NCBI GenBank assembly: GCA_000004695.1
Contig: CM000151.3
Location: forward strand, 992,001-1,056,000
Length of the DNA: 64,000 nucleotides
Source of the DNA: Dictyostelium discoideum
Taxonomy: Eukaryota
Direction of reading: 5' to 3'
This document shows, piece after piece, positions 4,139 through 8,439 of the stretch. The translations under genes were made by a program, and so were the position numbers. The notes under the pieces were generated by a model. That model saw nothing but the letters and a program-made list of their open reading frames with translations, was not told where the DNA came from and did not search any database. Within the stretch, counting starts at the first letter, position 1; each line of letters opens with the position of its first letter.

Positions 4139-4149
4139 GGAATCGAACC
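4139..4149 (-). promoter_or_regulatory. Extragenic B box (ex-B), GGTTCGATTCC, ~30 bp downstream of the tRNA-Gly 3' end. This Pol III/TFIIIC element is commonly duplicated downstream of Dictyostelium tRNA genes.
   Basis: An exact B-box consensus on the minus strand duplicates the internal B box of the adjacent tRNA. The surrounding sequence does not fold into a second tRNA. Confidence 0.6.
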
Positions 4150-4179
4150 TGCGATCTGATCCAAGAAAATTTTAATTTT

Positions 4180-4250
4180 TGCGTATGCTGGGAATCGAAC
4201 CCAGTTCGCATCCGTGGCAGGGATGCATCATACCACTAGACCACATACGC
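4180..4250 (-). tRNA. tRNA-Gly (anticodon GCC), 71 nt including the discriminator A.
   Basis: The minus strand reads GCGTATGTGGTCTAGTGGTATGATGCATCCCTGCCACGGATGCGAACTGGGTTCGATTCCCAGCATACGCA. The 7-bp acceptor stem is GCGTATG/CATACGC. The anticodon stem CATCC/GGATG encloses the loop CTGCCAC, giving anticodon GCC. The T-arm is TGGGTTCGATTCCCA, and the gene has an A box and a B box. Confidence 0.9.
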
Positions 4251-4284
4251 TTATTTATGAAAATTGAAAATATTTATACTAATT

Positions 4285-4298
4285 CCACTCAATTTTGG
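4285..4298 (+). repeat. Target-site duplication CCACTCAATTTTGG, 35-48 bp upstream of the tRNA-Gly 5' end. The same 12-14-mer recurs at 6689-6702 and 7667-7678 and bounds successive nested TRE5 insertions.
   Basis: Exact direct repeats occur at the three junctions. Retroelement 3' ends (oligo-A) abut the 5' side of the second and third copies. Confidence 0.65.
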
Positions 4299-4562
4299 AG
4301 ATCGAAAAAAACAAACAACAACAACAATCTCTTTTTTTGATTATTTCATTTTTCATATAAAAAAGACTTAAAAAACAAATAAATAAATAAATAAACTATT
4401 TTAAAAAGCCATCTTTTTACTTTATTGTAATTTATTATTTGTTTCGTTTTGAGAATTTTGCGTAGCAAAATTTTCAAAAAAAAAGCAAAAAATAATCAGA
4501 TCGAAAAAAACAAACAACAACAATCTCTTTTTTTGATTATTTCATTTTTCATATAAAAAAGA

Positions 4563-4570
<8 letters not shown>
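4299..4570 (+). repeat. Two direct copies of the element's 5' A-module, spaced 200 bp apart. The 72-77 bp cores lie at 4299-4375 and 4499-4570.
   Basis: The near-identical sequence AGATCGAAAAAAACAAACAACAAC...TTCATTTTTCATATAAAAAAGACTTAAAAA occurs twice. The second copy runs straight into a 29-nt A-run. Confidence 0.7.
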
Positions 4571-4596
<26 letters not shown>

Positions 4597-4674
4597 TGGG
4601 AACCCAAGTTAATCAGAAAATTTCCAGATTTTTAACTTTTTAAAGAAAAATAAAAAAAATAGAAAGAAAATAAG

Positions 4675-6009
4675 ATGAAAATCACAAACAACACCACAAA
4701 TATTAAGCAACACAAATGCCTACAAAAAATAAGCGAAATTGTGGATAAAACTCAATTAAAAAAAAAACAATTCAAATACGTCATAAACATCAATCACGAA
4801 CCAGACGATAAAATAAAAAAAGATTTAGAAAAAAGTTTGGACAAAAAAGATGTTTTAATCAAAAGTAATAATACATTCAAAATTCTCACAGACAGTATTA
4901 GTACAGTAATCTATTTTGTAAATATGTTTGATGCAGAATTAAAAGGACAATTTATAACCACTATAAGACCAAAAAATATGTATACAGATTTTGATTGGTA
5001 TAAATCACTCACAGAAATAGAATGGGTAATAGAAAATGAAGGATGTAAACTAATTAAATTAGAAATTAAAGGCGAAACTCTAATTATCAAAACAGTGAAA
5101 AGAGTCGTAGAAGAATTTGACACTATCATTGAACTAGACAATCTAACATTAATTGGACACTCCAACAAAGGATGGAGAGATCAAACCTCATTACCAGAAA
5201 ATCAAGAAGAAAACAAAAATAAAAAACAATCAGATGAACAACAACCACAATCTACATCAGAACAAATACCAAAACAAGGAAAAAGAACAATCATTATCCC
5301 ACCAATCACATCCTCATCTAATGATAAAACATTTATGGCCCTAGATGATCCAGCTCAAAAGGTAATAGAAGCATCACTAGAAAACGTAGATGAACTAACA
5401 AGAATAGAGAATGAGATCAATACACAATCGATAAACAATCAAGAAATTAAAACAAAATCAGAAAAACCTATTGAACCACCATCTCCATACAATACACCAA
5501 TAAAACAACACGGCGAAACAAAGAGACTAACAACGGAAGAAAAACTTATAGAGGCAAATGATATCTTCGACTTCACCAGCCCAAACACTGATGCAATAAG
5601 AAAAATAGAATTCCCACTTTCAATCCCTTCAAATCAATGGTTCTTCTCCTCTCCAATAAAACATATCATGAGTTTCAGCCCAACCTATGGTACACCATCG
5701 AAAATTATCGATTCACCAAGTAAATTGTTAAACACACCAAAAAAGAAACAACAAGACAAAACAAACAAGACCAACAAAACACCAGTCAAACCAAAATTGG
5801 GTGAATATGGACAAAAAAGCATAAAAACAAAAATGGATGAAGATATAGACAACTTCAACAAGGAAATTCTAAAACAAATCAATAAATCAAAAAACCCCAC
5901 AAACACACAAGACCAACAACACAACGAACAAAGTAAAGATCAGTTAGAAGACAAAATAAACCAGAAACTTCAAAAGGTAGATAAAAATCTACCCCAAATA
6001 AAACTATAA
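4675..6009 (+). CDS. TRE5-type ORF1, 444 aa.
   Basis: Track ORF. Its first 63 codons are duplicated at 6406-6595. It is followed in the element by the ORF2 endonuclease start. Confidence 0.65.
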   Translation: MKITNNTTNIKQHKCLQKISEIVDKTQLKKKQFKYVININHEPDDKIKKDLEKSLDKKDVLIKSNNTFKILTDSISTVIYFVNMFDAELKGQFITTIRPKNMYTDFDWYKSLTEIEWVIENEGCKLIKLEIKGETLIIKTVKRVVEEFDTIIELDNLTLIGHSNKGWRDQTSLPENQEENKNKKQSDEQQPQSTSEQIPKQGKRTIIIPPITSSSNDKTFMALDDPAQKVIEASLENVDELTRIENEINTQSINNQEIKTKSEKPIEPPSPYNTPIKQHGETKRLTTEEKLIEANDIFDFTSPNTDAIRKIEFPLSIPSNQWFFSSPIKHIMSFSPTYGTPSKIIDSPSKLLNTPKKKQQDKTNKTNKTPVKPKLGEYGQKSIKTKMDEDIDNFNKEILKQINKSKNPTNTQDQQHNEQSKDQLEDKINQKLQKVDKNLPQIKL

Positions 6010-6262
6010 AGAAAAACACAATAAGAATAGGTGTTTGGAACGTCCAAGGATCCAACACCATCCAATCTGCCAGCATAATAAACACCGTTTTAGACAACAA
6101 CAAGCTGGACGCAGCACTTCTAACTGAAACAAATATAAAAACAAATAAAATTTACTCAATAAATCAACAATATAAAAACAAAATAACACACCACGCACCA
6201 ATTGATAAAACAGGACAAGGGGTGTCACAAATCATCATCAACACCCGCAATAGAACTTCCTA
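6010..6262 (+). pseudogene. Truncated 5' fragment of TRE5 ORF2 (APE-endonuclease N-terminus), ~85 codons long before the deletion.
   Basis: Translation gives IRIGVWNVQGSNTIQSASIINTVLDNNKLDAALLTETNIK..., a canonical AP-endonuclease N-terminal motif. It ends at a stop, and a 59-nt A-run follows. Confidence 0.6.
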
Positions 6263-6305
6263 AACATCTCAAAAAATACAATAATTCACTCAGTACTTTC
6301 TATAA

Positions 6306-6364
<59 letters not shown>

Positions 6365-6702
6365 CAAGTTAATCAGAAAAATAAAAAAGATAGAAAGAAA
6401 ATAAAATGAAAATCACAAACAACACCACAAATATTAAGCAACACAAATGCCTACAAAAAATAAGCGAAATTGTGGATAAAACTCAATTAAAAAAAAAACA
6501 ATTCAAATACGTCATAAACATCAATCACGAACCAGACGATAAAATAAAAAAAGATTTAGAAAAAAGTTTGGACAAAAAAGATGTTTTAATCAAAAAGACC
6601 CTGTAAAAAAAAAAAAAAAATAAAATGAGATCTAGCATCTCAAGGAGAAGCAAATAATAATTGCGTTATCCAATTCAAAAAAAAAAAACCACTCAATTTT
6701 GG

Positions 6703-7666
6703 GTTAAGCAAAAATCTCCTCGGACATGTACAACCAGGCCAATAAGTATCGCAACTAAAAAAACTCCGAAATGAGGGATTATAATATATCATCGATCTGG
6801 GGAGTAGTTTTCAAAACTTTCCGACGGCACAAACGGCCGACAGGACACCCGGCACGGCACAAGCGAAGCCGTTGGTTAGTCAGACACTGCAACAGTAAAC
6901 ATGTGGCACACTGGCGAGACACTTCAAGTAACGGGAAGGAGGCTGGTGCCTCTGGGCCGACGCACTCGCACAAAGTTAGTCGATAAAAGTAAAAATATAT
7001 ATAAAGACGAATGGCGAGTGAGTGGCGCGAGAGATGAGAGCGAGTTTCGGTCACGAAAGTGGCTTAAGGTTTCACCGATGAATGGAGGTTGGGTAGTTGT
7101 CGCACCATCAACTTCAAGACCCGCCATACTGTCGCTGCATAGACTACATACAGGAGAAAAGTGGAGGTTCCAAGATTGCGTGGGGAATTGAAATTCTCAA
7201 CAAATTGGATATTTCATTAACAGCCAATGCAATAGCCATTATAAGCGAAAACATCTGGTGCAGAAGAAACAAAAAAGTTCATGAAGGAATCACCCTCAAA
7301 AATCCAAGAAAGGTTATTTAGTAATTTATGAACTTAAAAACTCAATACGCGGCGTGGGAGAGAACCAAAAACAACATATACAAACTAATTAGAGATGAAA
7401 AAAAAGCCACAAACAACGAACAAGCCAAAAAATTCAAATCCATCATATCCAAACAACTCGAGAGATTTAGCAAAAATTGGAACTCTCCAATCCACTCTGT
7501 AACACTACCAACAAATCTCAACAAATATACCACAACACTCACTAAAAAAAAAAAAAAAAAAAAAAAAAAAACTACACCTTAAAAGGCACCTGTAAACTAA
7601 ATAATAAAATGAGATTTATCTCAAGAAGAAGCAACTAATAATTGCGTTATTCCATTCAAAAAAAAA
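6703..7666 (+). mobile_element. Older 5'-truncated TRE5-type insertion (copy 2, 964 bp). It carries an anomalous GC-rich segment (6770-7190), a degenerate ORF2 C-terminal Cys/His region (7190-7545), an A-run and the 3' terminal module.
   Basis: It is bounded by the TSD copies at 6689-6702 and 7667-7678. The 3' terminal ~95 bp (7588-7666: ...AATGAGAT.TA.C.CAAGAAGAAGCAA.TAATAATTGCGTTAT.CCATTCAAAAAAAAA) matches the 3' end of copy 1 (6598-6688). Frames 7097-7321 and 7328-7582 encode ...IISENIWCRRNKKVHEGITL..., which resembles a non-LTR ORF2 C-terminal Zn-knuckle region. Confidence 0.5.
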
Positions 7667-7678
7667 CCACTCAATTTT

Positions 7679-7950
7679 TTCAAACGAAATTCAAGACACA
7701 ACACTTAATAAAAAAAACAATTAAATTATGTCATCACATCAATCACAACGAAGCCGACAATAAAAAAGATTTAGAAAAAGAATTTTTGATCAAAAGTAAT
7801 AATACAATTCAAAATTCGAAACAAAAAAAAAAAAAAAAAAGGTAAACTAACCCCTCTTATAGAGACCCTATAAAAAATACTACAAATAAAATGGGATCTA
7901 GCATCCAAGGAGAATCAACTAATTATTGAGTTATCCAATTCAAAAAAAAC
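7679..7950 (+). mobile_element. Third, most degenerate TRE5-family fragment. It holds a diverged ORF1 5' region, an A-run and the same 3' terminal module. Further diverged A-module-like sequence follows at ~7951-8000.
   Basis: Positions 7720-7815 are ~75% identical to the ORF1 start region (4770-4880). Positions 7866-7948 repeat the 3' terminal module. The sequence from 7951 (CAATCAGATTTTACCGATAATCCATTTTCATATAATAAA) resembles the A-module core. Confidence 0.4.
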
Positions 7951-8439
7951 AATCAGATTTTACCGATAATCCATTTTCATATAATAAATATTTTAAATAA
8001 ACTAATGGATTTTAATTTTTAAAAACAAATAGGCTAAAAACTGGAATTTTTACAAAAAATAAAAATATAATAATTTTATTATTTTCTAAAATTAAAACTC
8101 ATTAATAAAAACTTTTATTTTCTTCAACTCTTTTTATCAAAAAAAAACCTTTAATAAAATTAAATTGTATAATATAATTATATTATTTAATAAAAGACTA
8201 TTGCTTAAGATTTTTGATTTTCCAAATAATAAATTTATTTTTAAAAAAAAAAAAAAAAAAAACCATTCGCCCTATCTGGACAACATTTAAAAAAATTAAT
8301 AAAATAAAAATCATTATGAAATAAATATTACAATTTAAAATTAAAATCCAAATTTGGATTAAAAAAAAAATTTTAAAAAAAATCATTTTAAGTTTTTAAA
8401 AATTAAAAGAAATTAATTAATTTATTTAAATTTATTCAT

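Follow-up and report, generated by a model that had tools for sequence, protein, structure and literature searches.

The published insertion distance of TRE5-A is 47±3 bp from the tRNA gene, in strict head-to-head orientation (PMC5391098), and target-site duplications (TSDs) of 10-16 bp have already been published (PMC9012585). Tagged TRE5-A re-integrated at 91/98 already occupied tRNA genes, forming tandems (PMC5391098), and integration above an existing TRE5-A.2 has been sequenced before (PMC9012585).

The window analysed here, 64,000 nucleotides of Dictyostelium discoideum AX4 chromosome 2, holds three TRE5-family non-LTR retrotransposons (e1, e2 and e3) that were very probably stacked naturally by successive position-specific integration upstream of one tRNA-Gly(GCC). 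As in the TRE5-A(bsr)/TRE5-A tandems (Spaller et al. 2017; Barth et al. 2022), elements are stacked at the same canonical distance with the new copy proximal to the resident. In contrast to those tandems, the case described here is natural, has three layers and involves two TRE5 subfamilies, a shared and progressively modified TSD gives the order, and wild strains show an empty allele and an alternative insertion. Ty3 and Ty1 upstream of yeast tRNA genes resemble it in targeting Pol III complexes and in using the same tRNA genes repeatedly, but they are LTR elements with an integrase, other distances and another mechanism, and serve as an analogy only. The stack is a clean example of known biology and not a new phenomenon; the term "hot spot", used for this locus in a first-pass annotation, was not supported as marking anything exceptional.

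A repeated target motif upstream of the tRNA gene

The tRNA gene, the adjoining host DNA and the copies of the target are as follows:
4180-4250, minus strand: tRNA-Gly(GCC), the Pol III target (ARAGORN; Rfam RF00005, 63.6 bits)
4251-4284, no strand: host spacer of 34 bp from the tRNA 5' end to the duplicated target, collinear with the empty allele L008 and with L007
4285-4298, plus strand: TSD copy 1, 14 bp (12 bp of host CCACTCAATTTT plus GG), left TSD of e1
6689-6702, plus strand: TSD copy 2, 14 bp, right TSD of e1; its first 12 bp double as the left TSD of e2, and 6701-6702 (GG) are part of e2
7667-7680, plus strand: TSD copy 3, with CCACTCAATTTT at 7667-7678 as right TSD of e2
7950-7965, plus strand: decayed copy 4 of the target (CAATCAGATTTT, then ACCG), right TSD of e3, from alignment to the 12-mer

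ARAGORN and Rfam agree on the tRNA, which sets its 5' end at 4250. The 14-mer CCACTCAATTTTGG was found as exact matches at 4285-4298, where its last base lies 48 bp upstream of the tRNA (4251-4298), and at 6689-6702, positions that agree with the first-pass annotation; 7667-7680 matches it at 12/14 bases with the first 12 exact, and this is the 12-mer (7667-7678) named there. Allowing ≤2 mismatches, the 14-mer had five hits where 0.61 were expected, a number reached in 0/100 shuffles; the remaining two hits lie on the minus strand within elements and are irrelevant to the duplication.

The shared TSD of 12-14 bp claimed earlier stood as far as its recurrence goes, but its host part is the 12-mer CCACTCAATTTT and not the 14-mer. 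The "GG" that completes the 14-mer is the first two bases of e2: neither the empty allele nor copies 3 and 4 have it, and the homologous element of D. cf. discoideum, the full-length, TRE5-like L001, carries it at its own start (GGGTTAAAGC there, GGGTTAAGC in e2). A fourth, decayed copy at 7950-7961 was added to the three exact ones, making four in AX4. Its alignment to the 12-mer shows 10 matches, 1 mismatch and 1 gap, a fit equalled by only 0.7% of random 16-mers from the window, and the host flank ATAATCCATTTTCAT follows from 7966. Copies 1-3 have a 1-base deletion in common, while the decayed copy 4, the oldest, retains TCAGATTTT, equal in length to TCAAATTTT of the empty allele. Copy 3, extended by TT (7679-7680), probably doubles as the left TSD of e3, the TT being based on the T-run that follows the motif in L008. 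Part of the similarity seen in the e3 TSD could reflect the T-rich character of the site.

Three elements with separate 3' termini

The element nearest the tRNA, e1, comprises:
4299-6688, plus strand: e1, complete TRE5-A.2-type non-autonomous element, 2390 bp (from internal repeats, ORF1 and layout)
4299-4497, plus strand: A-module, 199 bp unit
4498-4565, plus strand: partial second A-module
4566-4594, plus strand: A-run
from about 4595, plus strand: 5' B-module
4675-6009, plus strand: ORF1, intact, 444 aa
6010-6307, plus strand: ORF2 remnant
6308-6362, plus strand: A-run
about 6375-6595, plus strand: 3' B-module copy
6596-6676, plus strand: C-module, 81 nt left
6677-6688, plus strand: A12 tail

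Its A12 tail is preceded by GCGTTATCCAATTC and directly followed by the motif copy at 6689. The B-module is duplicated with 99.1% identity (6375-6595 vs 4644-4864) and the A-module with 91.8% (4498-4591 vs 4299-4395). ORF1 encodes a protein that matches AX4 DDB_G0271952 exactly and has 98% identity to an AX4 protein family with 17 members of 444 aa, a length that fits the published 51-kDa TRE5-A ORF1 protein (PMC5911963). The youngest copy had been described as a 2.4 kb internally deleted TRE5-A-like element, and e1 bears this out, with about 3.1 kb of ORF2 missing relative to the full-length L001. The published layout of TRE5-A.2 is AB-ORF1-BC with a shortened C-module (PMC3159450); e1 has this order, with an A-module of ~200 bp, a B-module duplicated at the 3' side, ORF2 largely deleted, a terminal C-module only, itself shortened, and oligo(A). 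It also shares the head-to-head site 48 bp upstream of the tRNA and the 14-bp TSD with the TRE5-A.2 form of TRE5-A (DRE) (PMC3159450, PMC5391098, PMC9012585). Measured against these published descriptions, nothing substantive differs, and e1 has a partial second A-module.

The middle element, e2, comprises:
6701-7666, plus strand: e2, internally deleted TRE5-C-like element, 0.97 kb (from comparison with L001 and L002)
6701-7135, plus strand: GC-rich 5' module, 435 bp
7136-7543, plus strand: ORF2 C-terminal fragment and 3' UTR
7544-7571, plus strand: A-run
7572-7657, plus strand: C-module
7658-7666, plus strand: A9 tail

Positions 6692-7135 share 87.6% identity with L001:7917-8366, which lies immediately 5' of ORF1, and 7136-7666 share 88-91% with L002, a copy from a different D. 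discoideum strain; the translated fragment matches the ORF2 tails P0007 and P0008. Downstream of the ORF2 tail lie an A-run and then the C-module; a 3' B-module is absent, no B sequence lies in between, and the A9 tail is preceded by GCGTTATTCCATTC and directly followed by the motif copy at 7667. The C-module is 86% identical to that of L002 but only 74% to that of e1. The terminal C-module, the absence of a 3' B-module and the ~74% identity of the C-module to its TRE5-A counterpart agree with TRE5-C, for which 78% identity to TRE5-A.1 over the terminal 87 bp has been published (PMC3159450). It differs from TRE5-C in having lost ORF1 and most of ORF2, so that the 435-bp 5' module and a 530-bp 3' part remain. 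Judged by its sequence, e2 is an internal-deletion product with an intact, different 5' module, and is TRE5-C-like, not TRE5-A. The GC-rich module may represent the TRE5-C 5' end, as suggested by one full-length relative, the D. cf. discoideum element L001.

The outermost element, e3, comprises:
7681-7949, plus strand: e3, 5'-truncated, diverged TRE5-A-type 3' end, the oldest copy, 82-86% identical to the e1 B- and C-modules
7681-7822, plus strand: B-module fragment, with homology beginning at about 7681
7823-7840, plus strand: A-run
7841-7941, plus strand: C-module
7942-7949, plus strand: A8 tail

Its terminus is GAGTTATCCAATTC followed by A8 (7928-7949), then CAATCAGATTTT. The names TRE5-A.2 and TRE5-C-like follow the structures described in the literature and the relatives compared here.

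The recurring 12-14-mer could in principle be TRE5 terminus sequence and not a duplicated host target, as the first-pass annotation had allowed: the L001 alignment of 6692-7135 continues for a few bases beyond GGG on its upstream side, where CTCAATTT is paired with CTCATATTGAT, and ATTTT occurs in all flanks seen here after TRE5 A-tails. The probability of this is negligible, as motif copy 1 lies on the 5' side of e1 and adjoins host DNA, CCGCTCAAATTTT is found equally far from the tRNA in L008 and L007, where no TRE5 adjoins it, and the L002 copy of the e2 type ends in TTCCATCCA(10) and continues with TATCGCC (flank TATCGCCATTTT) without the target motif.

It is also very unlikely that 4299-7949 is one rearranged element or a composite from a single event (e2 read-through carrying flank and e3, or unequal TRE5 recombination), even though TRE5 clusters are rearrangement-prone (PMC5391098) and e2 itself arose by internal deletion. 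The three units have separate 3' termini, each with a C-module and its own A-tail and with two C-module subtypes among them, on which the possibility of one contiguous canonical element, raised in the first-pass annotation, fails. The spacers between units are the exact local target including the lineage-specific 1-base deletion, whereas a foreign composite would bring the flank of its own locus; and with two e2 bases within the TSD of e1, e2 must already have been in place. Successive integration is thus the preferred reading in what follows.

Alleles in other strains

Comparison with the alleles of other strains, as proposed earlier, gave both an independent copy of the stack and its absence. 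The assembly L006 (GCA_054883475.1), with 99.64% identity over 10 kb, shows the same arrangement throughout, including the three exact copies, so the stack is not an assembly artefact. In L008, a wild D. discoideum, the site is unoccupied: one motif copy, CCGCTCAAATTTT, leads straight into the sequence after window position 7966, with L008 collinear with 4251-4296 and from 7966 onward. On a wider scale, window segments 4138-4296 and 7975-10000 are adjacent in L008, and the ~31 bp between them hold the single motif copy. Four copies in AX4 against one in L008 are therefore the n+1 copies for three insertions, and the empty site bears out the claim of three successive integrations at one Pol III-defined position.

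The empty site of L008 might itself be a secondary, precise deletion by recombination between TSD copies, since the four direct repeats of 12-14 bp offer a conceivable substrate for it, and L008 is fairly diverged from AX4 in this intergenic DNA (86-91% identity, a divergence of 9-14%). I consider this highly improbable. The L008 motif has an extra A that is kept in the oldest AX4 copy and lost in copies 1-3; had copies 1-3 recombined to give the L008 allele, this A would be missing. L007 likewise has none of the three elements and instead has another TRE-type insertion, flanked by a TSD of its own, at about -64 bp, and e1, e2 and e3 are all lacking at the D. cf. discoideum loci L004 and L005. 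The unoccupied site of L008 is accordingly read as the pre-insertion state.

Proposed history of the stack

All three elements lie on the plus strand and the tRNA on the minus strand, with 5' ends toward the tRNA 5' end and A-tails distal. Their 5' junctions lie 48 bp (e1; 4299 vs the tRNA 5' end at 4250), 46 bp (e2) and ~48 bp (e3) from it, the latter two by reconstruction, which agrees with the TRE5 distance of 47±3 bp (range 40-54) upstream of the mature tRNA coding sequence. The oligo(A) tails (A12, A9 and A8) and the TSDs (14, 12 and ~12-14 bp, the last decayed) fit the 10-16 bp pattern.

The stack would have formed by repeated target-primed reverse transcription at a TFIIIB/TFIIIC-defined position upstream of tRNA-Gly(GCC). 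In the first step, e3 (TRE5-A-type) would have arrived heavily truncated at the 5' end, with the 5' junction falling ~48 bp from the tRNA and roughly C(C)A(C)TCA(A/G)ATTTT being duplicated; the proximal target copy would later have lost one base. The internally deleted e2 would then have integrated 46 bp from the tRNA, duplicating the 12-mer, and finally e1, at a distance of exactly 48 bp. This point falls 2 bp within the 5' end of e2 and accounts for the 14 bp duplicated, the 12-mer plus the GG of e2. The integration machinery would gauge its distance from the tRNA gene and ignore local sequence; a newcomer would therefore land between the tRNA and the prior copy, recopy the proximal bases and displace older copies outward. 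By analogy with published TRE5-A biology, the ORF1 protein would contact TFIIIB, e1 and e2 may have been mobilised in trans, and the nicks would presumably fall at the corresponding positions.

The earlier picture of the youngest copy nearest the tRNA and older, more truncated copies further out holds in that e1 integrated after e2, as the GG in its TSD records, but e2 is internally deleted and not 5'-truncated. Intermediate alleles (e3 only, or e3 and e2) were not found among the strains compared, and the arrival of e3 before e2 is consequently suggested by position and TSD decay.

The downstream side of the tRNA gene

On the other side of the tRNA, the following features were found:
4139-4149, minus strand: ex-B box GGAATCGAACC (GGTTCGATTCC read along the tRNA strand), same sequence as the internal B box (4191-4201)
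1-4127, minus strand: TRE3-type non-LTR retrotransposon, 5' part, continuing past the window start (from ORFs and domains)
2-2794, minus strand: TRE3-type ORF2 with Exo_endo_phos (1.2e-12) and RVT_1 (1.1e-30)
2788-3996, minus strand: TRE3-type ORF1, 402 aa, abutting ORF2
up to about 4127, minus strand: TRE3-type 5' UTR, boundary approximate

An ex-B box and a TRE3-type element had been proposed here, and both were recovered. The ex-B box lies 31 bp past the tRNA 3' end and is conserved in L003-L008. [quoted passage not shown] This agrees with the placement of TRE3 elements, which sit 40-150 bp downstream of a tRNA gene and are transcribed in the same direction (PMC5911963), past the B/ex-B box. 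ORF1, an ORF2 with APE and RT domains (its zinc-finger part lies beyond the window), the downstream position and the adjoining ex-B box are shared with TRE3-A/Tdd-3 and relatives (PMC5911963), and the element is assigned to TRE3 at the level of the family, above the subfamilies A-D.

At this locus, the TRE3-type element is absent from L007 and L008. Its 3' end is outside the window and seen only in L006, where the entire element occupies about 15046-20339 (5.3 kb) with an A-run at its end; the flanks there give a weak candidate TSD (TTGATTAAAA / TTTATTAAAA), and L008 is too diverged at this point, with an extra 2 kb. The full-length TRE3-type element represents a separate use of the downstream site just past the ex-B box.

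Organisation of the tRNA-Gly(GCC) locus

Three TRE5-family elements (e1, e2 and e3, with e1 nearest the tRNA gene) were found stacked upstream of a tRNA-Gly(GCC) gene, which ARAGORN and Rfam both placed on the minus strand, so that "upstream of the tRNA" means rising window coordinates. Three proteins predicted from the window, a B-box protein (DDB_G0271950), a CMP/dCMP deaminase (XP_645425.1) and the product of the ORF at 4675-6009 (DDB_G0271952), matched D. discoideum AX4 chromosome 2 entries exactly, and the locus thus lies within the published reference genome. Rfam searches over the window (gathering threshold) and over 6600-7400 (E up to 10) returned the tRNA as sole match.

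Features of the locus
2794-2, minus strand: TRE3-type ORF2 with APE and RT domains, running off the window
3996-2788, minus strand: TRE3-type ORF1
4139-4149: ex-B box, 11 bp, exact repeat of the internal B box at 4191-4201
4180-4250, minus strand: tRNA-Gly(GCC)
4285-4298: target motif, copy 1
4299-6688: e1, 2390 bp, TRE5-A.2-type layout
6689-6702: target motif, copy 2
6701-7666: e2, 0.97 kb, comprising a GC-rich 5' module, ORF2 tail, A-run, C-module and A9
7667-7678: target motif, copy 3
7681-7949: e3, a diverged 5'-truncated TRE5-A-type 3' end (B fragment, A-run, C-module, A8)
7950-7961: target motif, copy 4, decayed
8440-9189, minus strand: CMP/dCMP deaminase gene

The deaminase gene, intact and with two exons, is the first host gene past the stack, ~490 bp away from where integration originally took place; its family has several paralogues among Dictyostelium species.

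Target-site duplications and order of insertion

The 14-mer CCACTCAATTTTGG was present exactly at 4285-4298 and 6689-6702, with its first 12 bases again at 7667-7678, and position 4298 lies 48 bp from the tRNA 5' end, all as the first-pass annotation had described. Allowing up to two mismatches, five matches to the 14-mer were found against 0.61 expected. At the junctions the copies form target-site duplications (TSDs): e1 lies between copies 1 and 2 (14 bp), e2 between copies 2 and 3 (12 bp), and e3 between copy 3 (with TT) and the decayed copy 4, CAATCAGATTTT. Copy 4 aligns to the 12-mer better than do 99.3% of 16-mers taken at random in the window.

The orthologous locus was then taken from three other D. 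discoideum assemblies via the neighbouring deaminase protein. One of them (L006) was 99.64% identical to the window across 10 kb and had 3/3 exact motif copies, so that the structure cannot be put down to faulty assembly. A wild strain (L008) turned out to carry the empty-site allele: window positions 4138-4296 and 7975-10000 adjoin, and past the tRNA comes TTTTTATGAAATTTTAAAAATTTTACACTCATCCCGCTCAAATTTTTTTTAAAAATAATCCATTTTCAT, in which a single motif copy precedes the flank that begins at 7966 in AX4. Four target copies in AX4 versus one in the empty allele equal n+1 for three insertions, which upholds the earlier reading of three successive integrations at one site.

The additional claim of one shared 12-14 bp TSD held for the recurring 12-mer but not for its extension, as the GG that lengthens the 12-mer to the 14-mer is missing from the empty allele, copy 3 and copy 4, and is the start of e2. 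e1 thus inserted 2 bp within e2, at a distance of exactly 48 bp from the tRNA, and must be the younger of the two, in line with the proposal that the youngest copy is nearest the tRNA. A 1-base deletion is common to copies 1-3 (TCAATTTT), while copy 4 retains TCAGATTTT, equal in length to TCAAATTTT of the empty allele; the base must thus have been lost from the proximal copy between the arrivals of e3 and e2. A search of the 64-kb window for further TRE5 copies for terminus comparison returned none. The flank of an e2-type copy in another D. discoideum strain (L002) is unrelated to the motif (TATCGCC...), and CCACTCAATTTT is therefore read as a TSD and not as part of a TRE5 terminus.

Identity of the stacked elements

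e1 opens with a 199-bp unit that is repeated in part (4498-4591 is 92% identical to 4299-4395), followed by an A-run and a B-module in which an intact ORF1 of 444 aa begins; this ORF1 shows 98% identity to an AX4 protein family of 17 members. ORF1 gives way to a short remnant of ORF2 and an A-run of 55 nt, then to another copy of the B-module (6375-6595, 99.1% identical to 4644-4864), and the 3' end is made of an 81-nt C-module plus A12. Compared with a full-length TRE5-like relative from D. cf. discoideum (L001), ~3.1 kb of ORF2 is missing. The parts of e1 thus follow the AB-ORF1-BC order described for TRE5-A.2, a non-autonomous element (PMC3159450). In Pfam, the TRE5 and TRE3 ORF1 proteins had no matches, and searching for contigs by exact match to AX4 TRE5-A ORF1 proteins gave none. 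e3, the oldest layer, is 82-86% identical to e1.

e2 had been taken for a truncated older copy, which has to be corrected. The stretch 6692-7135 is 87.6% identical to the one directly 5' of ORF1 in L001, where the element starts GGGTTAAAGC and e2 starts GGGTTAAGC; from 7136 onwards e2 corresponds to the C-terminal end of TRE5 ORF2, matching the ORF2 tails of two proteins (P0007 and P0008) and being 88% identical to L002. Together with the C-module, this 5' module and ORF2 end indicate an element that kept its own 5' end and was internally deleted, not 5'-truncated. The C-module is 86% identical to that of the L002 copy and 74% to that of e1, and a 3' B-module is absent. In these features e2 agrees with TRE5-C as published, an element with a C-module, no B-module at the 3' end and 78% identity to TRE5-A (PMC3159450).

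A captured cellular RNA, acquired by template switching, was considered as a source of the GC-rich segment 6703-7135 and rejected, as the segment had no Rfam match and proved to be a module that a TRE5 relative carries at its 5' end. ORFs of the segment had no Pfam matches, RNA folding of the module was not above shuffled controls (z = -0.99), and a metagenome scan with a 27-mer from it gave no match. The module (6701-7135; L001:7921-8366) has 49% GC in surroundings of ~20-30% GC, and sits where TRE5-A has its A/B promoter modules. Between D. discoideum and D. cf. discoideum it is 87.6% conserved, and the adjacent ORF1 DNA less so (80-83%). On the 5' side of the TRE5-like element in L001, at a distance of 49 bp, is a tRNA-like sequence (7800-7872) that matches the A and B boxes; it has no pairing acceptor stem and no ARAGORN call, and its orientation, on the same strand as the element, is unexpected for TRE5 targeting.

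Integration model and relation to previous work

Going by published TRE5-A work (PMC5391098, PMC9012585, PMC5911963), ORF1 protein would contact TFIIIB at the tRNA gene, the ORF2 endonuclease would nick at a set distance, the RNA would be copied from its A-tail by target-primed reverse transcription, and the staggered nicks would leave a duplication of 10-16 bp. Because the tRNA gene is the ruler, a resident element leaves the site open and a later copy inserts on its tRNA-proximal side. Both e1 and e2 lack a functional ORF2; e1 must have moved in trans, and e2 presumably did too. Mobilisation in trans has been shown by experiment for TRE5-A.2. The tRNA-proximal TSD edge was the same in 3/3 events (-34/-35), with the distal edge at -46 or -48. 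As the A-tail points away from the tRNA, the proximal edge in these three events may correspond to the priming (first-strand) nick, and its constancy beside a varying distal edge suggests positioning of that nick by the Pol III complex. This positioning is put forward as a doubtful proposal, as is, separately, the idea that e2 represents an undescribed non-autonomous mini-TRE5-C moved in trans like TRE5-A.2.

The kinds of element and their stacking behaviour are already known. Tagged TRE5-A re-integrated at 91/98 tRNA genes already bearing TRE5-A, giving tandems (PMC5391098), one sequenced case had integrated above an existing TRE5-A.2 (PMC9012585), and stacked insertions obscure original distances according to the authors of a further study, in which 13% of tRNA genes had both TRE5 and TRE3 (PMC5006619). 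The locus had also been called a hot spot. As an unusual preference this is not supported, given that one wild strain is empty and that apparent hot spots were not reproduced experimentally (PMC5391098); if the tRNA gene is GlyGCC-3, a match made from contig coordinates, it had 0, 12 and 13 mapped contigs in three libraries.

The observation itself is confirmed, and its interpretation is supported with corrections. Knowledge of TRE5 and TRE3 targeting is unchanged by the locus; what is added is the precise order in which the layers were laid down, a corrected identity for e2 and the differences between strains at the site. It constitutes a base-pair-resolved natural record of retrotransposons stacked by distance-measuring integration at Pol III genes, for which wild strains supply both the matching empty allele and a different, independent insertion, and may serve as a teaching example, a marker of D. 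discoideum strain history or a small data point on the TRE5 nick site.

Downstream TRE3-type element

ORF1 and ORF2 on the other side of the tRNA form a non-LTR element oriented like the tRNA, of which the L006 copy is ~5.3 kb long with an A-run at its end. Its 5' end lies ~53 bp past the tRNA and ~11 bp past the ex-B box. This distance agrees with the 40-150 bp downstream published for TRE3, as does the shared orientation (PMC5911963). Over its 931 codons in the window, ORF2 has no interruption; L006 has a frame break at 17017-17069 (window ~2100-2150), which reflects either a genuine mutation or a mistake in the assembly.

Other strains and species

TRE3 was absent from L008 and from the third D. 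discoideum assembly (L007). L008 has ~2 kb of AT-rich DNA and a partial gene downstream of the tRNA (11500-13438) that AX4 and L006 do not have beside the TRE3 3' end (L006:20340-20432), reflecting either a TRE3-linked deletion or an insertion in L008. L007 has none of e1-e3 and instead carries a 1.2-kb 5'-truncated TRE-type ORF2 tail (11300-12530) ~64 bp upstream of the same tRNA-Gly. This insertion, 37% identical to P0007 (E 1e-38), without a C-module and with its own TSD around (A)nTCCATTT, is independent of the AX4 elements.

In sister species (L003, L004 and L005), whose loci were considered as candidate empty sites, the DNA upstream of the tRNA was too diverged or rearranged for base-pair alignment with AX4. 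D. dimigraforme (L003:11158-12100) has a tRNA-Gly(GCC) beside the orthologous deaminase gene, inverted relative to AX4, with two tandem TRE5-like ORF2-tail fragments upstream. In D. cf. discoideum (L004:10860-14300), the ~3.4 kb interval from tRNA-Gly to deaminase is bounded by a ~100-bp direct repeat of the deaminase 3' flank, which suggests that a segment was inserted or duplicated there without involvement of TRE5.
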